This document shows, one piece after another, positions 2-38,386 of a stretch of 38,777 bases of DNA (the stretch's first letter is position 1; each line of letters starts with the position of its first letter). The notes beneath the pieces are model-generated. The model made no database searches. It was given only the letters and a program-made list of their open reading frames with translations, and was not told the DNA's origin. This DNA comes from an uncultured Gammaproteobacteria bacterium (GTDB lineage Bacteria > Patescibacteriota > Microgenomatia > Daviesbacterales > UBA10151): assembly GCA_964653745.1 (NCBI GenBank), contig CAZZHC010000002.1, positions 1 to 38,777 on the forward strand, read 5' to 3'. Made by a program: the position numbers and the translations under genes.

Positions 2-706
2 AAATATGAATATGATCCCCAATCTCCAATTATTAGAGGTTCCGCCTTGAAAGCTTTGGAAGGTGATGCTGAAGCTGTCAAAAGCATTGAAGAGCTGATG
101 GATGCTGTTGATGAGTGGATTCCACCTCCCACCCGCGATATTGATAAACCATTTTTAATGGCTGTTGAGGATGTCTTTTCAATTAAAGGCCGGGGAACAG
201 TAGTAACTGGAAGAATTGAACGGGGAAAAGTAAAAATTAATGAGGAAATTGAGATTGTGGGAATTAGGCCAACTAAAAAGAGTGTGGTGACAGGAATTGA
301 AATGTTTCACAAAATGCTTGATGAAGGCCAGGCTGGTGATAATGCCGGACTACTCCTTCGGGGTATTGAAAAAGATGATGTGGAACGTGGTCAGGTTTTG
401 GCCAAACCAGGTTCAATTACCCCTCATGCTGAATTTGAAGCTGAAGTCTATATTCTTTCTAAAGAAGAAGGTGGAAGACACACTCCATTTTTCAAAGGCT
501 ACAGACCACAATTTTATGTCAGAACCACTGATGTGACCGGTGAAGTACAGCTTCCAGAAGGTGTGGAAATGGCTATGCCAGGTGATACCACTAAAATGAA
601 TGTTAAACTAATTACTCCAGTTGCTATGGAAGATGGTTTAAGATTTGCTGTCCGTGAAGGTGGAAAAACAGTTGGAGCTGGAGTAATTACTAAGATTATT
701 AAATAG
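2..706 (+). CDS. tuf: elongation factor Tu, C-terminal part (5' end outside window)
   Basis: ORF is open to the left window edge in frame 2. Translation ([52 protein letters not shown]) matches EF-Tu domains II/III. It lies directly upstream of rpsJ. Confidence 0.97.
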
Positions 707-732
707 GGTTTTGGGTTTAGGTTTTAGGGCTT

Positions 733-757
733 AGAAGAGGCGAAAGCCTCTTTTTTA
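733..757 (+). terminator. rho-independent terminator after tuf
   Basis: Stem agaagaggc / gcctctttt closed by a GAAA tetraloop and running into a T-tract, 27 nt after the tuf stop. Confidence 0.8.
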
Positions 758-766
758 TGTTAAAAT
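758..766 (+). promoter_or_regulatory. extended -10-like promoter element (tgttaaaat) for rpsJ
   Basis: TGnTAAAAT motif 30 nt upstream of the rpsJ ATG. The same 9-mer recurs upstream of infA, and similar TGnTAnnnT motifs occur in other intergenic gaps. Confidence 0.4.
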
Positions 767-795
767 AGTTAGCACATTGAAAGGTTTAGTAATTT

Positions 796-1104
796 ATGGC
801 CAAAGGTAAAATTAGAGTTAGATTAACAAGCTTTGATCATCGGGTACTGGATAATACTGTTGAGCAGCTTTTAGATACTGCTATCAGAACCGGTGCCAAA
901 ATTGTTGGACCTATCCCACTTCCTACCAAAACTACCAGATTTACTGTTCCCCGTTCCCCTCACACTGATAAAGATTCCCAAGAAGCTTTTGAACTTAAAA
1001 CACACAAAAGATTAATAGAAATTGTTGAACCAACTGATAAGACAATCGACAGTCTTATGCATCTCGAGCTACCAGCGGGAGTTAACATAGAGGTTAAAAT
1101 GTAA
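796..1104 (+). CDS. rpsJ: 30S ribosomal protein S10
   Basis: 102-aa [22 protein letters not shown]...[26 protein letters not shown]10 family, in the canonical position after tuf. Confidence 0.97.
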
Positions 1105-1126
1105 GTCGATTGTCTTGCGATAGTTC

Positions 1127-1158
1127 CACCGCTTCGCGGTGTATAACTATCTAAAAAC
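1127..1158 (+). repeat. GC-rich hairpin (caccgc-ttc-gcggtg) followed by CTAAAAAC; member of an island-specific repeat family
   Basis: Perfect 6-bp inverted repeat at 1127-1141, with ctaaaaac at 1151-1158. The architecture resembles the units at 1345-1376, 2830-2855 and 2915-2940. Confidence 0.5.
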
Positions 1159-1219
1159 AATTGATTCGCTGATGCATCTTGAACTCCCTGCAGGTGTAAA
1201 TATTGAAGTAAAGATGTGA
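1154..1219 (+). pseudogene. displaced, out-of-frame duplicate of the last 21 codons plus stop of rpsJ
   Basis: Reads [21 protein letters not shown], identical in amino acids to rpsJ codons at 1039-1104. 17 of the 19 codons that can vary synonymously differ, and the stop is tga versus taa. It lies in frame 2 whereas rpsJ is in frame 1, and no start codon or RBS was found. Confidence 0.85.
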
Positions 1220-1233
1220 CCCTCTTTTGCTAT

Positions 1234-1251
1234 TGATTTTTTAAAAAATCA
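1234..1251. repeat. perfect 18-nt AT-rich palindrome tgattttttaaaaaatca
   Basis: Exact inverted repeat (9+9 nt, no spacer) 15 nt after the relic rpsJ stop. It could be an operator, a recombination site or a weak hairpin. Confidence 0.6.
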
Positions 1252-1344
1252 GTTGTAAAATAGTTTTTACTGTGTTTAGGATTAGACCAAAAATAAGATA
1301 TATAAAACAATATGCCTTTTTAGAAGGCAAAGAAGCTTAACAAG

Positions 1345-1376
1345 ACCCGCGCAAGCGGGTTTTTAAATGGCTAAAC
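1345..1376 (+). terminator. terminator-like hairpin (acccgc-GCAA-gcgggt + TTTT) followed by GGCTAAAC motif
   Basis: 6-bp GC stem with a GNRA loop and a T-run at 1345-1364, with ggctaaac at 1369-1376. It lies upstream of the Hsp70-like gene. Confidence 0.55.
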
Positions 1377-1406
1377 GGTATACAATAGAAAGGAAATGAT
1401 CACAAG

Positions 1407-2816
1407 ATGAAATTCGGTTTAGACTTTGGAACAACAAATAGTTCGATTTCTATAAATCAGGGTGGAAAAACTCGAGTAATTGAAGTAGATCAGGCTGCGC
1501 TGGATCAGAGGGTGATTCGCTCGATGCTTTACTTTCTAAGAAGAGAAATACTTTATGGGTCAAACGTGACTCCACAGCAAATACAATCTCAAACCTTTAA
1601 GGTTGGTGACATTCAATATCAAGGGAGGCAAGAACTTCTAATTGGTCAAGAAGCAATAGAATCTTATCTAAATGATAATAAACAAAGAAAACCTGGTATA
1701 AAGAGAACTATTTATACGGGTCGTTTTCGGAGAATGAAAGATAATCCTGATCAGCCCCGGACTGACCCAGTTCCTGAATATTATGAAGAAGTTGATTATG
1801 GAACGGGTAGGTTAATTCAAGCATTAAAATCCAGTTTGAGAACCTCTTTTAAGGGGACAACAATTTTTGGGCAATTTTATTCAGTTGAAGAATTAATCGG
1901 CATGTTTGTAAAAAAAATTAAGGAAAAAGCAGAAGCTGAAAATGGTTTAGCTATAGAAGAGATTACCATTGGTAGGCCAGTCCATTTTTCTTTAGACCCG
2001 GAGGTAGATCAAAAAGCTCAAAACCGTTTGGCAGTGGCAATGAAAACAGCCGGTTTTAAAAAACTTAAATTTGAATATGAACCTGTAGCAGCAGCTAAAC
2101 AATTTTTGGCCGCATCTAATCAAAAACAAACCATTTTTGTGTTTGATTTTGGGGGTGGAACTTTGGATACAGCCATAGTTAGATTTGGAGAAAAAATAGA
2201 AGTTTTGGCAACTGATGGGGTGTATATTGGTGGAGATTTACTAAATGCTGATATTATGCAACACACGCTTTGGGATTATTTTGGCGCTTCTTCTACTTGG
2301 GGTGAACAAAAGCTGCAAATGCCCAGTTATATCTATTCAGCTTTAAATTCTTGGTACAGCATTCCCTCACTAAATGGCCCTGATGTTATGAATTTCCTAG
2401 AGCGGGCGGGTTATAAAAACTCTAATCCCAAGGCTTTAGAAAGATTAATTTATCTTATTAAAACTAATGTTGGTTTTGAAATTTATGAGGCCATTGAAAA
2501 AGCTAAAAAACAGTTATCAGAAGAAAAAGAAGCACGGATTATTTATGATGATGGTCCAATTAACCTGGATTTGAAAATTACCAGAGATGAATTTGAAAAA
2601 ATAATTGCTCCCAGAGTTGAAGAAATAAAAGAAGTAGTGTTAAAAACATTGCAAATGGCAAAATTGGAAGGGAGTCAAATTGATATGGTAGTTAGAACTG
2701 GCGGGTCATCACTAATCCCAGTTTTTGAACACATTTTGGAAGATATTTTTGGCAAAGAAAAAATCACTTTATTTGAAACTTTTACCAGTATTGCCGCAGG
2801 ATTATCCCTAAGTTAA
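1407..2816 (+). CDS. Hsp70/actin-fold ATPase, nucleotide-binding-domain-only (YegD-like), no recognisable substrate-binding domain
   Basis: 469-aa ORF. It contains the N-terminal phosphate-1 motif MKFGLDFGTTNSSISI, the phosphate-2 motif FVFDFGGGTLDTAIV and the adenosine motif VVRTGGSSLIPVF, all typical of the DnaK/Hsp70 NBD. The length is too short for an SBD and lid. Confidence 0.85.
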   Translation: MKFGLDFGTTNSSISINQGGKTRVIEVDQAALDQRVIRSMLYFLRREILYGSNVTPQQIQSQTFKVGDIQYQGRQELLIGQEAIESYLNDNKQRKPGIKRTIYTGRFRRMKDNPDQPRTDPVPEYYEEVDYGTGRLIQALKSSLRTSFKGTTIFGQFYSVEELIGMFVKKIKEKAEAENGLAIEEITIGRPVHFSLDPEVDQKAQNRLAVAMKTAGFKKLKFEYEPVAAAKQFLAASNQKQTIFVFDFGGGTLDTAIVRFGEKIEVLATDGVYIGGDLLNADIMQHTLWDYFGASSTWGEQKLQMPSYIYSALNSWYSIPSLNGPDVMNFLERAGYKNSNPKALERLIYLIKTNVGFEIYEAIEKAKKQLSEEKEARIIYDDGPINLDLKITRDEFEKIIAPRVEEIKEVVLKTLQMAKLEGSQIDMVVRTGGSSLIPVFEHILEDIFGKEKITLFETFTSIAAGLSLS

Positions 2817-2829
2817 TTTGATTTGTGGG

Positions 2830-2855
2830 TCCACCTCGAAGGTGGAAGGCTAAAC
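2830..2855 (+). repeat. hairpin (tccacc-tcgaa-ggtgga) + AGGCTAAAC repeat unit R1
   Basis: Inverted repeat at 2830-2846. The 3' arm plus tail, ggtggaaggctaaac, is nearly identical to ggtggcaggctaaaaac at 2924-2940. Confidence 0.6.
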
Positions 2856-2864
2856 TTTTGTTTA

Positions 2865-2907
2865 TGCCCGCAGGTGTCCCGCTTCGCCCGCGAAGCGGGG
2901 CGAGCAA
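2865..2907 (+). repeat. long GC-rich hairpin (core cccgcttcg-cccg-cgaagcggg)
   Basis: 9-bp perfect stem at 2878-2899, extendable by tgcccgc/gcgagca with one mismatch. It shares ccgcttcgc with the hairpin at 1127-1141. Confidence 0.6.
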
Positions 2908-2914
2908 CCTAATT

Positions 2915-2940
2915 CACCCCTGGGGTGGCAGGCTAAAAAC
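2915..2940 (+). repeat. hairpin (caccc-ctg-gggtg) + CAGGCTAAAAAC repeat unit R2
   Basis: Direct-repeat partner of R1. Together they bracket the central hairpin within the 180-nt gap between the two island genes. Confidence 0.6.
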
Positions 2941-2996
2941 TGGGTATATTGTAATTTAAGTATGGTTTTGGTTTAATAGTCAATTAAGAAACTATT

Positions 2997-3344
2997 ATGC
3001 AAGAAAGACATGGTTTATCGGTTAGAGCGGTTTGTTTTAGTGAAATTGGTGGTGCTTTTAATCCTGCAACAGATGAGACAGATCCACAAAACAGCCCTGG
3101 TTTAGATTTATTATGGGCAGGAGCAAGACCCGGTCAGACTTTATCAGAAAAAGTAGAGGCAGTTTTAAATCGTTTGCCCTGGCGGCAAACAGTGATATTT
3201 GAACTAAGGCATGGTTTAGGTTCAGATGAACAAGAACATACACTGCGAGAGATAGCAGACCTTGTAAAATTACCCCTACCAAAGGTGTATAGGACTTTAA
3301 CTTTAGCACACCGGGCACTCTATAACTATTGCAACCCTAAATAG
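2997..3344 (+). CDS. stand-alone sigma-70 region 4-like HTH protein (possible sigma-factor fragment or regulator)
   Basis: 115-aa ORF. The C-terminal 70 aa (LSEKVEAVLNRLPWRQTVIFELRHGLGSDEQEHTLREIADLVKLPLPKVYRTLTLAHRAL) follow the region 4.1/4.2 pattern L..L..RE..V..LR.GL......TL.EI......S...V.....AL. No region 2 or 3 is present upstream. Confidence 0.6.
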   Translation: MQERHGLSVRAVCFSEIGGAFNPATDETDPQNSPGLDLLWAGARPGQTLSEKVEAVLNRLPWRQTVIFELRHGLGSDEQEHTLREIADLVKLPLPKVYRTLTLAHRALYNYCNPK

Positions 3345-3351
3345 CCTCTAC

Positions 3352-3381
3352 TTGCAATTTAGCCTCAACTCATGCTACAAT
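3352..3381 (+). promoter_or_regulatory. sigma-70-type promoter for the rplC-onward operon
   Basis: -35 ttgcaa (3352-3357), an 18-nt spacer and an extended -10 tgctacaat (3373-3381). It is located just after the island genes. Confidence 0.6.
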
Positions 3382-3533
3382 CCTTATAAGCCATGCAGAT
3401 GGTTTTTGAGACGTAAAAAAGAAAATAAATTTCAGTAAATCGCGTCCTTCGTCAGGACGTTGATACTGACTCAGGATAAACTGAGAGGTATCAGCGACTT
3501 GTCCTGAGGAACAAAGTGACGAAGGAAATACTG
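3382..3533 (+). promoter_or_regulatory. structured 5' leader RNA upstream of rplC with mutually exclusive pairings
   Basis: Hairpin H1 at 3443-3459 (cgtcct/aggacg) and hairpin H2 at 3462-3492 (gatac..ctcag/ctgag..gtatc). The segment tccttcgtca (3445-3454) can instead pair perfectly with tgacgaagga (3517-3526). Confidence 0.5.
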
Positions 3534-3566
3534 GAGTGAGTTCGTCTAGGCGACTCGCTCTTTTTT
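3534..3566 (+). terminator. intrinsic terminator/attenuator immediately upstream of rplC
   Basis: 8-bp stem gagtgagt/actcgctc (one G-U pair) at 3534-3560 followed by TTTTTT at 3561-3566. It ends 13 nt before the rplC ATG. Confidence 0.6.
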
Positions 3567-3578
3567 GTGGAAAAAGAC

Positions 3579-4319
3579 ATGATAAACACATTACTTGGTA
3601 TTAAAAAGAATATGACTAGCACTTATGATGCCCGGGGACGCCGGGTTGGTGCCACTGTGGTGGAAATTGGACCAAACTTTGTTACCCAAATTAAAGATAA
3701 AGAAAAAGATGGATATAGGGCAGTTCAGCTTGGATTTGGGACTAAAAAAAGTGTTAAAAAACCTCAAATCGGACATGCTAAAAAAGCAGGATTAGAGCAA
3801 AAAATCCGCTGGTTTAGGGAAGTTAAAGTTGAAGGTGGAGATGTTAAATCTGGCCAAGAAATTAAAGTGGGCCAGGTTTTTTCTATTGGAGATGCTATTA
3901 AGGTGACAGGTATTTCTAAGGGTCGGGGTTTTCAAGGTGGTGTGAGACGCCATGGTTTTGCCGGTGGACCCAAAACTCATGGTCAATCAGATAGATGGAG
4001 AGCTCCAGGTTCAATTGGGTCAGGTACTACTCCAGGTAGAGTTTTAAAGGGTAAAAGGATGGCAGGACATATGGGGGTAGAAACTGTGACAACCAGGGGT
4101 TTGGAAATAGTGGGAGTAGATAAAGCTAATAATTTACTCACTATTAAGGGGGCGGTACCAGGAGCAACAGGTGGTTTGGTAATTGTGGAAAAATTAGGCA
4201 GAATTAAGGGTTATACTCCCCCACCAGAGGAAAAACTAGATGAAGAAGAAGAGGTTAGTGAGTCAGAAAATAGTGAAGCAGTGAAACAGGAGGAGCAAAA
4301 TGCCAACAGTGAAAGCTAA
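3579..4319 (+). CDS. rplC: 50S ribosomal protein L3 (with acidic C-terminal tail)
   Basis: MINTLLGIKKNMTSTYDARGRRVGATVVEIGPN... matches the L3 N-terminus. ATG 3579 is preferred over the ORF-track GTG 3567. The tail is PPPEEKLDEEEEVSESENSEAVKQEEQ. Confidence 0.93.
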   Translation: MINTLLGIKKNMTSTYDARGRRVGATVVEIGPNFVTQIKDKEKDGYRAVQLGFGTKKSVKKPQIGHAKKAGLEQKIRWFREVKVEGGDVKSGQEIKVGQVFSIGDAIKVTGISKGRGFQGGVRRHGFAGGPKTHGQSDRWRAPGSIGSGTTPGRVLKGKRMAGHMGVETVTTRGLEIVGVDKANNLLTIKGAVPGATGGLVIVEKLGRIKGYTPPPEEKLDEEEEVSESENSEAVKQEEQNANSES

Positions 4320-4986
4320 AATAACAAAACCGGTTGTTGGGGGTTTATCTGTACCAGTATATGCTTTGGATGGAAAAGCAGCTGGGAGTATGATTTTACC
4401 AAAGGAAATTTTTGGAGCCAAGGTAAATAAAGCCTTACTTACCCAGGCTGTTAGAGTTTATACTTCCAATCAAACAGCCCATTTTGGAAATACCAAAACT
4501 AGAGGTGAGGTTAAAGGTTCAACCAGAAAAATTAGATCCCAAAAAGGTACTGGTGGGGCCAGGCATGGTGGTATCAGGGCTCCAATTTTTGTTGGAGGTG
4601 GAATTGCTATGGGGCCAAAATATCGGAAAGTCTCTTTGGACTTACCAAAAAAGATGAAAAAAGCAGCTTTGGTTTCTGCTCTGTCAAGCCGGGCCTTAGA
4701 TCGAGAAATAGTGGGTCTCGTAGGTTGGGATAAAGCTACTGGTAAAACCAAACAAATGCAAGTCTTATTTGATAAATTAGGTAAGAAAAATATTTTGCTA
4801 ATTAGTGGTCAAAGTCAAGAGAAAGCCAATCGGGCAGCTAAAAATTTACCGGGTTTGGAAGTAATTTTAGCCGATAATTTAAATGCCTTAGAAGTAATTG
4901 CCCATCAAACTTTAGTGTTGACCAAAGATGCAATAGAGAAGTTAGAGCTAAGAATGAAGAGTGAAGAATTAAAGAAGGAGAAATAA
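4300..4986 (+). CDS. rplD: 50S ribosomal protein L4
   Basis: 228-aa ORF containing KTRGEVKGSTRKIRSQKGTGGARHG. An AGGAGG RBS lies upstream, and the start overlaps the rplC end by 20 nt. Confidence 0.95.
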   Translation: MPTVKAKITKPVVGGLSVPVYALDGKAAGSMILPKEIFGAKVNKALLTQAVRVYTSNQTAHFGNTKTRGEVKGSTRKIRSQKGTGGARHGGIRAPIFVGGGIAMGPKYRKVSLDLPKKMKKAALVSALSSRALDREIVGLVGWDKATGKTKQMQVLFDKLGKKNILLISGQSQEKANRAAKNLPGLEVILADNLNALEVIAHQTLVLTKDAIEKLELRMKSEELKKEK

Positions 4987-5418
4987 ATGAAAATTATTTT
5001 GCAAAAAGCGCATATTTCAGAAAAGACCATGGGGCTGGCTAAAGCTGGTTGGTATACCTTTTTGGTAAGTCGCAATGCTAGAAAACCAGAAATTATTAAA
5101 GCTGTAAATAATAAATTTGAAGTGGAAGTGATAGCTATTAAGACTGCCAACTATAAAAAGGAAACTAAATTACAACGATCAAGAAAGGGTCATTTTACGG
5201 TGCCAGGATTTAAAAAAGCCATAGTTGCACTTAAAAACGGTCAAAAAATAGCCCTTTTTGAGACAGAAACCGTTGAGGAAAAACAGCCCGAGAAAAAAGA
5301 GGCCAAAGAAAAGAAAAGTTTACTCAAAGGCACTAAAGTCAAAATTGAAAAAAGTGAAAAGAAAGAAGTGGATGTTAAAGATAAAAAAGCAAAAAGTAAG
5401 AAAAAGGAGAAAAAATGA
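4987..5418 (+). CDS. rplW: 50S ribosomal protein L23 (Lys-rich C-terminal extension)
   Basis: The N-terminal ~95 aa are L23-like and the position is canonical. About 45 extra residues at the C-terminus are rich in K and E. Confidence 0.9.
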   Translation: MKIILQKAHISEKTMGLAKAGWYTFLVSRNARKPEIIKAVNNKFEVEVIAIKTANYKKETKLQRSRKGHFTVPGFKKAIVALKNGQKIALFETETVEEKQPEKKEAKEKKSLLKGTKVKIEKSEKKEVDVKDKKAKSKKKEKK

Positions 5419-5446: not shown

Positions 5447-6265
5447 ATGGCACTTATAAATTACAAGGAAAAAACTAAAACCAGAAGATTTGCTTCTAAA
5501 TTAGAGCGTCCCAAGAAAAACGGGTCAGCTCCCAAATCTTTGCGGACAATTTTGGTCAAACACAGCGGTCGATCACACGGGACTGTTACAGTCAGACATC
5601 AGGGTGGCAGACACAAAAGATACTGGCGGGAAATTGATTTTTTGAGAAATAAATTTGGGGTGGAAGGGAAAGTCGAGGTTTTCGAATATGATCCAAACCG
5701 CAATGTCGATATTGCTTTAATTAAATATATTGATGGTGAGTATCGTTATATTTTGGCCCCCCAATCTTTAAAAGTTGGTGACAAAATTATCTCTGGTGAA
5801 AAAGTAGAAGTCAAAACTGGTAATGCTATGAGATTAAAAAACATGCCAATTGGGAAAGTGGTTCATAATGTAGAGCTCACACCAGGTAAAGGTGGACAAT
5901 TGGGCAGAAGTGCTGGTACCTCTTTAACCCTACAAGCCAAACAATCACCTTCCGCTCACTTGAAACTTCCTTCAGGAGAGATTAGAATGGTTCCTTTGGA
6001 AGCCTTGGCTACAATTGGAACATTGGGTAATGAAGAATGGAAAAATGTTAAGTTTGGTAAGGCCGGTAGAAAAAGGCACATGGGAATAAGGCCATCAGTT
6101 CGAGGTGTAGCCATGGATCCAGATTCTCACCCTCATGGTGGAGGAGAAGGTAGATCAGGAGTAGGACGAAAAAAACCAATGACTAAATATGGCCGTCCGG
6201 CTGTTGGAAAAACCAGAAAAAAGGGAAAATATTCAGATAAATATATAATTCGGAGGAAAAAATGA
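5447..6265 (+). CDS. rplB: 50S ribosomal protein L2
   Basis: Contains [18 protein letters not shown] and [16 protein letters not shown], which are L2 hallmark motifs. Confidence 0.97.
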
Positions 6266-30130: not shown

Positions 30131-32938
30131 GTGGCTAAAGATTTAACAAACCTCTTCTGTCCAAAATCAGTCGCAGTTATTGGTGCTTCCAGATCCCCCC
30201 AAAAAGTGGGGGCAATTGTGCTTAAAAATATTATTGAATCAAAATTTCCTGGTAAAATTTATCCTGTTAATCCCAATACTGAAACTATTAATAATCTGAC
30301 TTGTTTTAAAAATGTGGATAGTTTACCGGAAGTTGTTGATTTAGTAGTAATAGCTATTCCAGCCGTCCGAGTTTTGGCAGTGTTAAATGAAATTGGGGAA
30401 AAAGGAATTAAAAATGTGGTGGTGTTAGCAGCTGGTTTTAAAGAAAGTGGAGCGGAAGGAGAAAAATTAGAAAAAGATTTGGTTGAAATTTCCCAAAAAT
30501 ATAATTTAAATTTATTGGGGCCAAATTGTTTGGGCTTTGTTAATAATTTGTGTCCAATTAATGTAACATTTGGTCAAGCGTCTGCCAGCATCGGTAACCT
30601 GCGTTTTATTTCTCAATCTGGAGCCATTGCAGCCAGTTTGTTTGATTTTTGTAAATCTTCTGGTTTAGGATTTTCCCAGTTTATCACTTTGGGTAATAAA
30701 GCTGTCACTACCGAAAGTGATGTTTTAGAATATTTTCAAGGTGTTGCGCCCATTGAGTATCAAGAAGGATTATCCAAATCCCAACCAATTGGACTTTATT
30801 TAGAAAATATTTCTGATGGCTTAAAATTTTTAGAAATTGCACAGCAACTTTCGAAAACGGACCCCATCTTTATTTTAAAACCTGGTAAAAGTGAAGCAGG
30901 AGTTAAGGCTATGCACTCTCATACCGGGGCGATGGCTTCTGATAGTGCTGTTTTAGATGCGGTTTTAAATCAAGCCGATATCATCCGTTGCCAAACTTTG
31001 GAAGATTTTTTTGATTTTTCTCGGGCTTTTGCTTTTGAAAATGCACCAACTGGGCCTAAGGTAGCAATTATCTCCAATGCCGGTGGACCAGCGGTAATTT
31101 CAGCCGATGCAATTACCAGCGCTGGTTTAGAGCTTGCTCAATTTGATGACCAAACCCGTCAGGCTTTGGCCCAAATTTTACCAAGGTCGGCCAATATACT
31201 AAATCCAGTTGATGTTTTGGGTGATGCTTTGGCTGACCGTTTTGCCAAATCGGCAGAAATTATCCTGCAGGCAGAGGAGGTTGATGCTTTGGTAGTAATT
31301 TTAACTCCTCAAATCATGACTCAAATTGAGCAGACAGCCAAATATTTAGTAGAGCTGTCTAAAAAATATCAAAAGCCAATTCTTTGTTCTTTTATTGGCG
31401 GAAGTTTGGTGGTAGAGGGAGAGAAAATATTAAGCCAATATAAAATCCCTGTTTTTCGTTTTCCGGAACTGGCCATTAATGCCTTGTCTGCGATGTGGCA
31501 ATTTTATAAAAACCGGTTGCAAGAAGAAAATAATATGGCACAGGTTTCAACTATTGAACTGGATTTAATTAAAGTAAAACAAATTATTGCTGGTGCAAAG
31601 AGCAATAATCAAAAAACATTGGATAATTTGCAGGCCAATAATTTACTTTCATTAGCTGGGATTTTAACACCAGCAACTGCTGTGGTTGAAAGTTCTGATG
31701 TTGCTAGAAATTTTGCTAAGGAACATGGATATCCCGTGGTCTTGAAATTATCATCACCCGGACTTTTACATAAAAAAGAAATAGGGGGAGTGATTATTAA
31801 TATTTTAAATGAAGAGCAACTGCAAAAAGCTTGGGAAAAATTAGAGCAAAAATTGGAAAATGGATTTGAGATCCAAATCCAACAAGATGTAGGAGAGGGG
31901 GTGGAAGCAATTGTGGGGATAAAACATGATCCTAATTTTGGACCAGTTTTACTTTTTGGGGCAGGGGGTTCTTCGGCAGAACTTATCGCTGATAAAAATT
32001 TGCATTTATTACCAATTAATCTCACACAAGCCCAAAAATTAGTTGAACAATCCAAACTTTGTTCGCTTCTTAATTTTGATTTGCAAAAACTTAATGAGAC
32101 AATTGTTAGTTTTGGAAAATTGGCCCAAAATTTAGCAGAGGTAGCAGAGATGGAAATTAATCCTTTAATTATTACTAAAGATAATGTTTGGGCAGTTGAT
32201 GGTAAAGTAATACTCAAGGAAAATCAGGTGGAGCAAGTCGGCGGTCCCAAATTTCAAACAGCCAAGGTTGTAAAACATGTTAATTTGGCCAGTACCTATC
32301 ATTATTTTGAGTTTGAAACAAATGAGCCTTTAATTTTTAAACCAGGTCAATATATCAGTGTTAAAGTGGCTAGTGACCGAGTTAATTGTTACTCAATTGC
32401 TGGTAGTATAAACCCCAATCAATTTAGCTTGCTAATTGATATTTCACCGGGAGGTCCAGGATCACAATTTTTTGAAAAATTAAAAGTGGGCGGGCAAATG
32501 CTATATCTTGGACCATTTGGTATTTTTACTTTGGATATGGAAGATGAAGCTTCAAAATTATTATTTTTGGCAACTGGTAGTGGTTTGGCCCCGTTAAAAT
32601 GCATGATTGAACAAATTTTGTATAAAGAAAAAAGTCAGTTACCAATTGATTTATATCTTGGTTTAACTTCTCCAAAAGATTTATTCTGCGAGGATTATTT
32701 ACAAAATTTAGCCCGGCAATATTCTAACTTTCATTATAAAATAGTGATATGGAAAGGGGATCAATCTTGGCAAGGGGAAAGTGGATTTATTACTACCAGC
32801 CTAGATAAAGATTTAGCCGATGCAAGTGACGGGGCAGCTTATCTTTGTGGCAACCAAGAAATGATTGCCGATGCCACCAAAATACTCCTTGAGAAAAATA
32901 TGCCAAAAGAAAGGATTTACACTGAAAAATATTTTTAG
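30131..32938 (+). CDS. ADP-forming acyl/acetyl-CoA synthetase (fused alpha+beta) with C-terminal FNR-like FAD/NAD(P)-binding reductase domain
   Basis: 935-aa single ORF. It has the CoA-binding motif PKSVAVIGASRSPQKVG, the ligase-CoA motif GPNCLGF and an ATP-grasp domain (HGYPVVLKLSSPGLLHKKEIGGV). From about nt 32245 it has FNR motifs: KPGQYISV, CYSIAGS, LGPFG, FLATGSGLAPL, YLCGNQEM and a terminal aromatic YF. Confidence 0.85.
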   Translation: MAKDLTNLFCPKSVAVIGASRSPQKVGAIVLKNIIESKFPGKIYPVNPNTETINNLTCFKNVDSLPEVVDLVVIAIPAVRVLAVLNEIGEKGIKNVVVLAAGFKESGAEGEKLEKDLVEISQKYNLNLLGPNCLGFVNNLCPINVTFGQASASIGNLRFISQSGAIAASLFDFCKSSGLGFSQFITLGNKAVTTESDVLEYFQGVAPIEYQEGLSKSQPIGLYLENISDGLKFLEIAQQLSKTDPIFILKPGKSEAGVKAMHSHTGAMASDSAVLDAVLNQADIIRCQTLEDFFDFSRAFAFENAPTGPKVAIISNAGGPAVISADAITSAGLELAQFDDQTRQALAQILPRSANILNPVDVLGDALADRFAKSAEIILQAEEVDALVVILTPQIMTQIEQTAKYLVELSKKYQKPILCSFIGGSLVVEGEKILSQYKIPVFRFPELAINALSAMWQFYKNRLQEENNMAQVSTIELDLIKVKQIIAGAKSNNQKTLDNLQANNLLSLAGILTPATAVVESSDVARNFAKEHGYPVVLKLSSPGLLHKKEIGGVIINILNEEQLQKAWEKLEQKLENGFEIQIQQDVGEGVEAIVGIKHDPNFGPVLLFGAGGSSAELIADKNLHLLPINLTQAQKLVEQSKLCSLLNFDLQKLNETIVSFGKLAQNLAEVAEMEINPLIITKDNVWAVDGKVILKENQVEQVGGPKFQTAKVVKHVNLASTYHYFEFETNEPLIFKPGQYISVKVASDRVNCYSIAGSINPNQFSLLIDISPGGPGSQFFEKLKVGGQMLYLGPFGIFTLDMEDEASKLLFLATGSGLAPLKCMIEQILYKEKSQLPIDLYLGLTSPKDLFCEDYLQNLARQYSNFHYKIVIWKGDQSWQGESGFITTSLDKDLADASDGAAYLCGNQEMIADATKILLEKNMPKERIYTEKYF

Positions 32939-36970: not shown

Positions 36971-36991
36971 ACCTAATCTCTATTTGACGTG

Positions 36992-37000
36992 TGCTATACT
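36992..37000 (+). promoter_or_regulatory. extended -10-like element tgctatact, 7 nt before the ATG at 37007 (possible leaderless mRNA)
   Basis: TGnTATACT inside the insert. ttgacg lies at 36984-36989, which is too close to serve as a -35. Confidence 0.4.
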
Positions 37001-37006
37001 ACTTTT

Positions 37007-38386
37007 ATGTCCGAGGGTTCCTTTTCACCAGAATTACCTAAAGAACAAAAAGCAGCAATCCGTGAATTTACCAAATCTACTCCAGAAGGTAGACAAGCTA
37101 GGAATGATGCTGCCGAAGATATCCTTGGTCAAAGAAGTGAAGCCAGACAATCGCGGCAAAAACAAAGAGATTATTTAATAGATAGACAAACAGATAACCA
37201 ACAAAACCGGGCAGATGCAGAAGCAAAAAAGGTAGAGGCAGAAAATCGGCTTTTATACTTAAAAGCTGAATTGGTTGACAGGTCTACATCCTGGCTTGCG
37301 CGGGCACGCGCATTGGTTAGTAGGAGTTTTAGAGAAGAAGCTTGGAAGCTACAAAAACAACTACCTGAACTTGAATACGGCCTGGAGAGACAAAATATGT
37401 CTCTGAAGATACAACGGGAAACTTATCAACGAGAGTTGTTTGTTTTAGAAAAGAAATTTAATGAACTTTCTCGGTGGCATAAAACTCATCCACTTGTTGG
37501 TAAAAAAACTTTACAAAAGTTTTATGGGCAACAATGGGGCTTACTTAAAGATCAACGACAATCTTTAGAAGAACAAAGACAAAAGGCAGAACTTGAACGT
37601 TACAAACAAGAGCATGGCACTGTAGCAGAAGTTACAGATAGATATCAAGGTTATATTGTCCACGGTATAACTCCAGGATTTGGTGGTGCTAATAACATGG
37701 TGTTAGAAGATACGGCTAGCTGGGCAGATAAATTGATGGTTATTGTGGCTGAACGACCACCTCTTTCTGCCTCATTTGTTAAAAAAGGCAATGGTCCCCA
37801 GCACTTATGGAGCCCAATAGGTGTTGTGATTCAAAGCGGTATTATAGCTGAAGCAGAGGGTGGAGATTTAGGATCATTGGCGGTGGACAAAAAGACTAAA
37901 AAAGGGAAGGACCCGAAAAATATTATGAGGTATCAACAAAGTTTAGAAAGAGCCGTAGCAAAAAATAATGCTCATATATCTTCGGGTTGGCATAATGAAG
38001 TAATTTTAGAATTTGGACTCAAAGTAGGTGGAGTCTATATTAATTTAGATCAAGGTGGAGATACTATTTTTGACAATAAGGGAATGAGATTTGAATCCGG
38101 AAACCTCAAGCGTGCTGCAGGTGGTACTGGTGAAATTATAAACCGGCTTGATAGAATTGAATATGAAGATATTTATGAGACTGCAAGTATTGTCGGTTTA
38201 CCTGTTGTTGTTTTGAAAAATGGCATTTTGTATGAAAGTTCATATGACCCAACTCGAGGGTTAACTGTGGGGAGAGAATTATCCCCTAGAGAAATCACCG
38301 CCAGCCCAACAGAGATTCCAAATGAAAATATACCAGGGGTACAAAAAAGAGCAAACTCTGTTTTAAAGACTGTAGCAGTTTATTAA
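37007..38386 (+). CDS. hypothetical protein: ~210-aa coiled-coil N-terminal half plus ~245-aa unrecognised globular C-terminal domain
   Basis: Uninterrupted ORF of 459 aa from ATG 37007 (track start GTG 36989). The N-terminal half is rich in R, Q, E and K with heptad-like periodicity. The C-terminal half (GYIVHGITPGFGGANNM...GGDLGS...GGTGEI) matches no family I recognise. Confidence 0.65.
   Translation: MSEGSFSPELPKEQKAAIREFTKSTPEGRQARNDAAEDILGQRSEARQSRQKQRDYLIDRQTDNQQNRADAEAKKVEAENRLLYLKAELVDRSTSWLARARALVSRSFREEAWKLQKQLPELEYGLERQNMSLKIQRETYQRELFVLEKKFNELSRWHKTHPLVGKKTLQKFYGQQWGLLKDQRQSLEEQRQKAELERYKQEHGTVAEVTDRYQGYIVHGITPGFGGANNMVLEDTASWADKLMVIVAERPPLSASFVKKGNGPQHLWSPIGVVIQSGIIAEAEGGDLGSLAVDKKTKKGKDPKNIMRYQQSLERAVAKNNAHISSGWHNEVILEFGLKVGGVYINLDQGGDTIFDNKGMRFESGNLKRAAGGTGEIINRLDRIEYEDIYETASIVGLPVVVLKNGILYESSYDPTRGLTVGRELSPREITASPTEIPNENIPGVQKRANSVLKTVAVY

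Follow-up and report, generated by a model that had tools for sequence, protein, structure and literature searches.

The window analysed here, 38,777 nucleotides (nt) long, is DNA of a Candidatus Daviesbacteria metagenome-assembled genome (MAG; candidate phyla radiation, CPR), in which the genes rpsJ (ribosomal protein S10) and rplC (ribosomal protein L3) are separated by an island of additional sequence. The island is real, and we consider it probable that it represents a mosaic of independent pieces gathered in a recombination-prone gap between two operons. The tuf end reaches position 706, as located by open reading frame (ORF) scan and Pfam, and is followed by rpsJ at 796-1104 (Pfam Ribosomal_S10, E 6e-35). 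The first gene of the downstream ribosomal-protein (r-protein) operon, rplC, occupies 3579-4319 within an ORF of 3567-4319; its start is the conserved ATG at 3579, which aligns with the starts in 14 relatives. The rpsJ stop at 1104 and the rplC start at 3579 agree with the initial annotation and leave a gap of 2474 nt, and the features which that annotation had listed were all recovered, at or close to where it had placed them. All of the features lie on the plus strand.

In Daviesbacteria, the tuf-rpsJ and rplC to rplQ units stand apart, divided by a spacer of about 220 nt that holds the rplC promoter and an attenuator-type leader. The first piece of the mosaic would be an old-resident ATPase gene that makes up a transcription unit by itself, complete with promoter region and two-hairpin leader, and that would originally have followed directly after rpsJ, as it still does in loci L093 and L004. 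A later event would have inserted, ahead of the resident end of rpsJ, the recoded last 21 codons of the gene and a hairpin spacer of 49 nt, with the incoming tail deriving from another, probably congeneric, genome. The third piece, seen only in this lineage, would consist of a palindromic hairpin block and an orphan gene for a sigma-region-4-like helix-turn-helix (HTH) protein. The gap may turn over when taken-up DNA recombines at its conserved flanks, namely the rpsJ 3' end and the rplC promoter and leader, and occasional one-sided or site-specific events would leave tail duplications behind.

The junction was compared across 80 rpsJ loci, one genome per species, in which tuf, rpsJ, rplC and rplD were placed by tblastn. 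Among the 17 complete Daviesbacteria junctions, the gap ranges from 221 to 4464 nt with a median of 1807 nt and exceeds 400 nt in 14 (individual lengths: 221, 239, 267, 465, 949, 1087, 1134, 1656, 1807, 2161, 2474, 2603, 2818, 2932, 3373, 3976 and 4464 nt). Across the 80 loci, a gap of about 45-115 nt is confined to Gammaproteobacteria; Clostridia and most CPR loci have 80-330 nt, and eight CPR loci from outside Daviesbacteria have 0.9-3.3 kb. The premise of the initial annotation, that rplC generally lies within tens of nt of rpsJ, therefore applies in full to Gammaproteobacteria only and has to be relaxed for Clostridia and most CPR. In an all-against-all blastp comparison, the gap ORFs are mutually unrelated except for the ATPase and one small ORF common to L016 and L021, and most of them have no Pfam or PHROGs match. 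The recognisable cargo includes an ABC-2 transporter in L097 and L099, an IS200-like fragment in L016, and a putative toxin-antitoxin pair, identified by eye, in L027. In a neighbour-joining tree of tuf, rpsJ, rplC and rplD, which is star-like, occupied and empty junctions are interleaved. Searches with Pfam and PHROGs found no recombinase, transposase or HUH (rolling-circle) nuclease in or beside any insert, the IS200-like fragment in L016 being the only exception; PHROGs returned neither a recombinase nor a phage structural match for the gap ORFs, and its sole match was to a sigma factor, for ORF105 of L017. The split junction with accessory-like content that had been noted in the window is genuine, and its content differs between related genomes: the stretch from the rpsJ stop to the rplC promoter tolerates insertions and turns over fast between them. 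A literature search on the rpsJ-rplC junction in CPR found nothing.

In several respects the junction resembles chromosomal integration hotspots, with conserved flanks, variable and mostly orphan cargo, toxin-antitoxin-like and IS-derived genes, and a patchy presence and absence among relatives. Unlike the usual hotspots, it lies inside the highly syntenic tuf-S10-spc cluster and has no associated integrase or tRNA gene. The scan for tRNA and tmRNA genes was empty, so a tRNA-type attachment site is absent. Separately, toxin-antitoxin-like pairs were seen in or near the tuf-rpsJ-rplC region of several Daviesbacteria, at 2230-2626 of L027 and 303-858 of L016 (both by eye), and as PhdYeFM/ParE between fusA and tuf at 2760-3277 of L004 (precomputed Pfam).

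The downstream edge of the gap is formed by a promoter and a structured leader that belong to the rplC operon. A promoter of the form TTGCAn-17/18-TAnAAT lies 5' of rplC in every Daviesbacteria-type locus; in the window it takes the TG-extended form TTGCAA-18-TACAAT, at 3352-3381, and both its sequence and its position are kept in relatives. It is followed by the leader at 3383-3566 (fold z = -7.1), whose common plan comprises TCAGTAGATYGYGCGTC, a variable hairpin, GATACGRCRATTG, TACTGAGTGAG, a loop and then CTCACTCTTTTT. The motif was found in all 20-odd Daviesbacteria loci (L004 7902-8003, L020 6474-6563, L093 6563-6651 and 15 other loci), and the 'empty' junctions L014, L020 and L025, of 221-267 nt, contain little besides promoter and leader. 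A longer version, enlarged by the insertion of one more helix, is common to the window and L018. In the window, the first hairpin spans 3388-3405, the core starts at TCAGTA at 3432, and an intrinsic terminator or attenuator at about 3535-3566 directly precedes the rplC start. RNAalifold analysis of 18 sequences revealed a compensatory U-A to C-G change in the P1 stem in 7 of the 18, and compensatory changes at four pairs of the terminator stem. The rplC leader is therefore a structured, covarying 5' untranslated region (UTR) that ends in an intrinsic terminator, as expected of an attenuator-type leader.

Since promoter and leader are present in all relatives, including those with 'empty' gaps, they are not part of any island. 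The initial annotation had proposed that a fresh promoter and leader restart the operon at rplC; the restart stands, but its assignment to the island does not, both elements being native to every Daviesbacteria relative. By this comparison, the ancestral state in Daviesbacteria appears to be one in which tuf-rpsJ and the genes from rplC onward are separate transcription units with a regulatory spacer between them.

Most likely, by analogy, the rplC leader serves as a candidate feedback attenuator bound by a protein of its own operon, with L4 as the precedent, and its conservation makes it a candidate for a new autoregulatory leader of ribosomal proteins (L4/L3). Like the E. coli S10 leader and the Archaeoglobi L4 leader (PMC7247131), it is a structured 5' UTR directly before an operon encoding L3 and L4, and it shares with r-protein leaders an intrinsic terminator just before the first gene. 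In contrast to the E. coli S10 leader, which acts by L4-mediated attenuation, the Daviesbacteria leader lies before rplC rather than before rpsJ, and in contrast to known r-protein leaders its sequence and structure have no Rfam family. A published survey of ribosomal leaders (PMC7247131) records an L4 leader 5' of rplC in Archaeoglobi alone and an S10 leader in Firmicutes. The leader had no match in Rfam 15 and was not seen outside Daviesbacteria among the loci examined; neither Rfam nor the literature searched turned up any ribosomal-protein leader in this phylum. In the whole window, Rfam gave no match at gathering score, and a permissive scan of 650-3700 gave only chance-level matches (E 0.15 or higher). 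As separate observations on the same gap, other lineages possess conserved rpsJ-rplC sequences of their own, located about 120 nt 5' of rplC in L060, L064, L082, L089 and L092; several Parcubacteria-type loci have CCATGTYC...ACCTCTGGACAC, followed by a GC hairpin, in common. The Clostridia loci L067-L086 have GGGAGCTTCAAATCCCGAA...GTCAACCAATAACC in common between rpsJ and rplC.

At the upstream edge of the gap, the end of rpsJ is present twice. Tail1 (1039-1104), which comprises the last 22 codons including the stop, is the currently functional end of the gene, and tail2 (1154-1219, K82 to stop) is a pseudo-fragment displaced downstream. The displaced tail reported in the initial annotation is genuine: the two copies encode 21 of 21 identical residues (rpsJ residues 82-102), while 20 of their 66 nt differ without a single amino-acid change. 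Of these differences, 17 fall at third codon positions, and the remainder consist of a six-fold serine codon swap and one stop-codon base. A random single-base change here would be silent in only 21% of cases, so the fully silent pattern (20 of 20) is not due to chance. It indicates that the tails diverged each within a working rpsJ, in different lineages, and hence that the incoming piece came from another genome. Tail2 is out of frame with rpsJ and is preceded by an in-frame stop (TAG, 1121-1123), which together rule out its translation by frameshift or bypass. Independent initiation is unlikely, the sole in-frame start being a GTG at 1139 with no obvious ribosome-binding site. An origin of the tails in a diversity-generating retroelement was likewise rejected: the changes affect more than the adenines of one copy, every one of them is synonymous, and a reverse transcriptase is lacking.

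The comparison with relatives suggests which of the two ends is the older. The rpsJ ends of L015, L020 and L007 match tail2 at 84-87% identity, and in L015 the match extends 11 nt beyond the stop. Together with 1255-1370, tail2 is collinear with the spacer between the rpsJ end and the ATPase gene in L004, which argues that it is the former gene end and was once contiguous with the ATPase unit. Tail1 and the 49-nt spacer (1105-1153, fold z = -3.65) thus appear to be the newcomer, with the spacer presumably having arrived together with tail1. The spacer has no similarity to any other locus compared. Its first 12 nt (1105-1116, GTCGATTGTCTT) repeat rpsJ 1039-1050 as a perfect reverse complement; it carries a GC hairpin, CCACCGC-TTCG-GCGGTG, at 1126-1141; and positions 1145-1164 pair with 1106-1125.

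Two observations weigh against such a replacement by DNA of another genome. Both tails of the window encode Asn where 17 of 17 relatives have Asp or Glu, which requires either a donor from the same narrow lineage or a convergent change. Furthermore, no donor of tail1 and its spacer was found among the loci compared; since identity among the rpsJ tails is about 75-88% throughout, tail1 could not be assigned to a donor.

The same kind of scar is found in three further loci. In L027, the tails lie 52 nt apart with a breakpoint at K82 and nothing between them; in L017, 563 nt separate the tails, with a breakpoint at S86 and ORF105 in between; and in L024, 652 nt and a 201-amino-acid ORF separate them, the breakpoint is at M88, and the displaced copy shows two non-synonymous changes. 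Directly after the new stop, the beginning of the duplicated segment recurs in inverted orientation in the window and in L027 (12 of 12 and 8 of 8 nt, respectively), which is the case in none of the 18 other loci examined. We infer that the tail duplications are scars of recombination with DNA of related genomes. Simple homologous exchange accounts for neither the clustering of the breakpoints nor the inverted copies, and this leaves some limited room for a site-specific mechanism.

The arrangement recalls the prophage e14 and phage 21, which integrate into the 3' end of icd in E. coli and replace it. As at icd, the incoming DNA would provide a substitute end of an essential gene with mainly synonymous differences and leave the original end further downstream as a non-functional remnant. 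The diverged direct repeat of a gene 3' end that characterises this type of integration is present in the window, with the same pattern in L017, L024 and L027; the encoded integrase or recombinase is missing, as no recombinase domain was found in the gap ORFs with Pfam or PHROGs. The target here is rpsJ, only 49-652 nt lie between the two ends, and directly behind the new stop codon the breakpoint sequence recurs in inverted form, all of which differ from e14 and phage 21.

A further repeated element of the gap is contained in the hairpin block (2823-2943, fold z = -2.4). The block holds two decayed copies of a palindrome with 13-bp arms, TTAGCTTgACACC-N5-GGTGTaAAGCTAA, at 2823-2860 and 2908-2943, flanking a GC hairpin at 2876-2901; this hairpin cluster, like the 18-nt perfect palindrome TGATTTTTTAAAAAATCA at 1234-1251, had been recognised in the initial annotation. 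A covariance model detected only seven copies of the motif in 273 kb of Daviesbacteria DNA (besides the two in the window, L017 6653-6690 and 6829-6866, L027 2173-2210, L016 162-199 and L002 61-98), and five of the seven lie in rpsJ-rplC gaps. The two copies in L017 follow ORF105, one of them abutting the displaced tail, and those in L027 and L016 precede the putative toxin-antitoxin pair and a Phd/RelE-like pair (by eye), respectively. A function as a plain terminator was rejected, since no U-run follows the motif on either strand, as was a function as a promoter, since the -10-like hexamer is missing the final T that is invariant in such elements, and a good -35 accompanies just three of the seven copies. 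Judging from their sequence and placement, the motif copies could be operators for region-4-like proteins, or cassette boundaries.

The latter role belongs to an alternative that we regard as unlikely, in which site-specific cassettes, integrase-less or mobilised in trans, target the rpsJ 3' end near codon 82 and deposit a recoded tail together with cargo. The 115-nt piece of tail1 and hairpin in the window would then be a miniature or decayed element, and the palindromic motifs would mark boundaries. Four independent tail displacements among about 20 junctions, with breakpoints at K82, K82, S86 and M88 of 102 codons, speak for such cassettes, as do the single complete ORF that starts 6-12 nt after the new stop in both L017 and L024, the inverted copies in both short-spacer cases, and the concentration of the motif in these gaps. 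They are opposed by the lack of any mobilising enzyme in or beside the inserts noted above, by the absence of common sequence between the spacers of the window and L027, and by the mutually unrelated cargo ORFs between the tails. The sample is small, and the clustering of breakpoints could equally reflect a structural hotspot for illegitimate recombination. Slightly less likely still is the fuller version of this idea, in which the rpsJ 3' end is the attachment site of undescribed small CPR cassettes that consist of a recoded tail and a hairpin and deliver cargo into the r-protein cluster; the palindromic TTAGCTTGACACC-N5-GGTGTAAAGCTAA would then be a cassette boundary or an operator. We therefore retain recombination with related genomes as the preferred origin of the tail duplications.

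The largest gene of the island (1407-2816) encodes a YegD-like Hsp70-family ATPase of 469 amino acids (Pfam HSP70, E 2.6e-34). Structurally, the protein has an Hsp70/actin-fold nucleotide-binding domain (NBD) with all three nucleotide-binding motifs; DFGTTN, DFGGGT and GGSS (phosphate-1, phosphate-2 and adenosine motifs) do not vary among 46 homologues. The AlphaFold2 model, built on the alignment of these homologues, reached a predicted local distance difference test (pLDDT) value of 90.8 and matched the NBDs of DnaK/Hsp70 in Foldseek (E of about 1e-23, template modelling score 0.7 on the target). A linker and a substrate-binding domain are missing, as Pfam HSP70 positions beyond about 367 of 599 are unmatched and the model stops with the NBD. 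The NBD-only Hsp70-fold ATPase of the initial annotation is hence borne out by Pfam, AlphaFold2 and Foldseek alike. The best NCBIfam model is PRK11678 (YegD, E 4.9e-46), yet the score of 157.5 bits falls short of the 331-bit equivalog cut-off, which makes the protein YegD-like but places it in a separate Patescibacteria subfamily. Like E. coli YegD (PRK11678), the ATPase is NBD-only, measures about 450-470 amino acids and retains all nucleotide-binding motifs, and, like that protein, it has no assigned function (PMC13580251); YegD-type proteins in general have no established function (PMC13580251, PMC13232886). Unlike E. coli YegD, it features a β-rich insertion at approximately residues 20-150, and its gene carries a conserved two-hairpin 5' leader and adjoins either the r-protein operon or Lon.

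The family is large in Patescibacteria, with 4372 matches at E <= 1e-5. Homologues lie directly 5' of the rplC operon in at least 10 relatives, with 60-79% identity to the window protein (L096 79%, L093 74%, L097 72%, L098 and L099 68%, L004/L026 66%, L024 62%, L021 and L007 60%). Two further copies occupy a site between Lon and H+-PPase (L002 68%, L008 56%), and more distant family members stand in other, unrelated contexts. In L093, the ATPase is the sole gene of the gap and is separated from rpsJ by 130 nt. Its other neighbours vary, from an unrelated 125-amino-acid ORF in L096 and the ABC-2 transporter in L097 and L099 to other ORFs elsewhere. A protein identical to that of the window is encoded in GCA_016198265.1, and a metagenome scan with a single ATPase sequence as query returned three loci only. 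Given the large Patescibacteria family, the host-like composition and the same site in at least ten relatives, the ATPase appears to be a resident gene, neither a recent nor a foreign acquisition. The initial annotation had stated that relatives carrying its genes at the same site would speak against a mobile module; for the ATPase, this is what the comparison revealed.

The region between tail2 and the ATPase start contains a second structured leader (1313-1365), with a first hairpin at 1313-1329 and a GC hairpin at 1344-1360 that is followed by a U-run and AATGG. It is conserved in eight genomes and at both sites, rpsJ-rplC and Lon-PPase (L093 4900-4955, L004 5930-5975, L002 approximately 5945-5985, L008 approximately 4960-4990), and RNAalifold predicts 13 pairs, seven of which show compensatory changes. 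The leader may represent an attenuator or a regulatory RNA. Since it moves with the ATPase gene to the Lon site, the 'terminators' belong to the ATPase leader: the terminator-like GC hairpins listed in the initial annotation are present (1126-1141, and 1344-1360 with its U-run), but their description as a module's own terminators does not hold. Upstream of the leader, a candidate promoter for the ATPase unit, TTGATT-17-TAAAAT at 1233-1261, is overlapped by the 18-nt palindrome. The site was recognised by its consensus alone and is conserved in neither L004 nor L093, and such sites are no more numerous across the region than in shuffled sequence.

Three points weigh against a simple history of the ATPase as an old resident. 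Its presence is patchy on the flanking-gene tree, where the nearest neighbour of the window, L018, lacks the ATPase and holds 4.5 kb of other genes; in the ATPase tree, the copy from the Lon site of L002 falls within the group of rpsJ-site copies; and both trees, built by neighbour joining, are star-like and carry no support values. Because of the patchy presence and the nesting of L002, an old resident with losses cannot be separated from repeated horizontal exchange or relocation of the gene.

We also considered that the ATPase may be kept by selection beside the r-protein operon, for example as a ribosome- or nascent-chain-associated Hsp70-like factor expressed through read-through from tuf-rpsJ. 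At least 10 genomes keep it directly 5' of the rplC promoter while everything around it turns over heavily, which fits this idea; so does the terminator-like leader, which would permit regulated read-through from rpsJ in an arrangement such as that of L093, and so does the alternative site next to the Lon protease, itself a protein-homeostasis neighbour. Nevertheless, the ATPase is missing from about half of the junctions, including those of the nearest relatives L018 and L027, its distant relatives lie in unrelated contexts, and no YegD-like protein has an experimental function (PMC13580251, PMC13232886). On balance we find this functional neighbourhood rather improbable, and a resident gene in a gap that turns over around it remains our preferred reading. 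Most likely, the ATPase acts as an ATP-dependent Hsp70-like protein-homeostasis factor and would not be part of a mobile or defence system. PADLOC-DB 2.0 contained no defence match for the ATPase or for the second gene of the island, and a scan of viral contigs for the ATPase returned generic Hsp70s only, with at most 29% identity.

This second gene, ORF115 (2997-3344), encodes 115 amino acids with a C-terminal sigma-70 region-4-like HTH. Its scores against the Pfam models for sigma-70 region 4 (PF04545 and PF08281) lie below the gathering thresholds (21.9 versus 25.7 bits in one case and 18.9 versus 24.1 bits in the other), with an E of 1.4e-4 for Sigma70_r4_2. A word-indexed search among 5.8 billion proteins found only ORF115 itself, and an exhaustive HMMER search yielded six weak matches (P0122-P0127), proteins of 600-1087 amino acids to each of which ORF115 aligns at three to seven separate stretches. 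Four of the six were scanned with Pfam, and P0123 and P0124 consist of repeated sigma-70 region 4 units; ORF115 matches the multi-region-4 protein P0123 with an E of 3.7e-15. The one relative among the fetched loci is ORF105 of L017 (26% identity, E 1e-6), which passes the Pfam Sigma70_r4 cut-off with 39.6 bits and is itself an orphan; the N-terminal halves of the two proteins have only an ATxxTDPQN motif in common. PADLOC gave a weak sigma-type match (MzaA, E 0.003) to ORF105. Neither protein matched sigma-70 region 2 or 3, so that a complete sigma-70 factor is not encoded. A sigma-70 region 4 domain in ORF115 is thus likely on indirect sequence grounds: the region-4-only ORF of the initial annotation is supported through ORF105 and P0123, but its direct Pfam score stays under the cut-off. 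The protein is most likely a candidate DNA-binding protein, possibly acting on the adjacent palindromes. The single-sequence AlphaFold model (pLDDT 44) was too poor for a fold search. ORF126 of L019, ORF305 of L007 and ORF148 of L099 resembled region 4 by eye but were not accepted as region-4-like, as profile comparison gave E values of only 0.006, 0.056 and 0.76.

The two island genes had been read in the initial annotation as a self-contained accessory or mobile module of ATPase and sigma-region-4 HTH protein, possibly defence-like or regulatory. Within the window, the genes do stand side by side in one orientation, with hairpins and repeats on their flanks, and the junction is a variable region. 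Among the related genomes, however, none of the ten with the ATPase at this site has a relative of ORF115 in the junction, and the pair was seen nowhere else; the absence of ORF115 from ATPase-bearing relatives means that the two genes are not a conserved pair. ORF115 is an orphan whose sole relative, ORF105, lies beside rpsJ in a MAG (the source of both L017 and L002) in which the only recovered ATPase copy is at the Lon/H+-PPase site, a statement limited by the L017 contig, which stops 1.2 kb after rpsJ and before rplC. Together with the lack of PADLOC matches and the native composition, these observations render a two-gene module very improbable compared with independent arrivals in the gap. 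Both the ATPase and the HTH gene fall into known families, and there is no sign of a new system.

With regard to composition, the impression that the island is not obviously foreign was confirmed, its GC content being 0.377 compared to 0.382 for the whole window. The GC content at third codon positions is host-like as well, with 0.245 and 0.259 in the island genes compared to 0.27-0.30 in the ribosomal genes. We further considered a chimeric join of strain variants as the source of the tail duplication or of the island, given that the sequence comes from a metagenome-assembled genome and that the two tails resemble two alleles. The window DNA recurs in a second assembly record (L001) with an identical arrangement, analogous tail duplications occur in three other species, ATPase-bearing junctions lie on contigs of up to 609 kb, and tail2 and the DNA that follows it keep the order found in L004, with which they are collinear. 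An assembly chimera, which the initial annotation had named as a possible undoing of its observation, is therefore extremely improbable, with homologous arrangements in other species pointing the same way as the second record.

Elsewhere in the window, two genes lie apart from the junction. An ORF of 935 amino acids (30131-32938) combines coenzyme A (CoA)-binding, succinyl-CoA-ligase-like and ATP-grasp domains with FAD- and NAD-binding oxidoreductase domains in an unusual fusion; its architecture is like that of acetyl-CoA synthetase (ADP-forming), and it adjoins subunits of pyruvate:ferredoxin oxidoreductase. At the window end, a 465-amino-acid ORF (36989-38386) has no Pfam match at E <= 1e-5.

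The tuf-S10-spc cluster is regarded as the most stable gene order in bacteria and underpins CPR phylogenomics. Across a CPR clade, one junction inside this cluster is a hotspot of fast turnover, at which the end of an essential gene has repeatedly been replaced. Following up the initial annotation yielded, as by-products, this recurrent replacement of the rpsJ tail and an rplC leader that is absent from Rfam. Two unannotated candidate RNAs emerge from the comparison, namely the rplC leader, a candidate for L4/L3 feedback, and the leader of the YegD-like Hsp70 gene. The turnover calls for caution in synteny-based binning and annotation, and the junction may offer a window on DNA exchange in organisms with few recognisable mobile elements.

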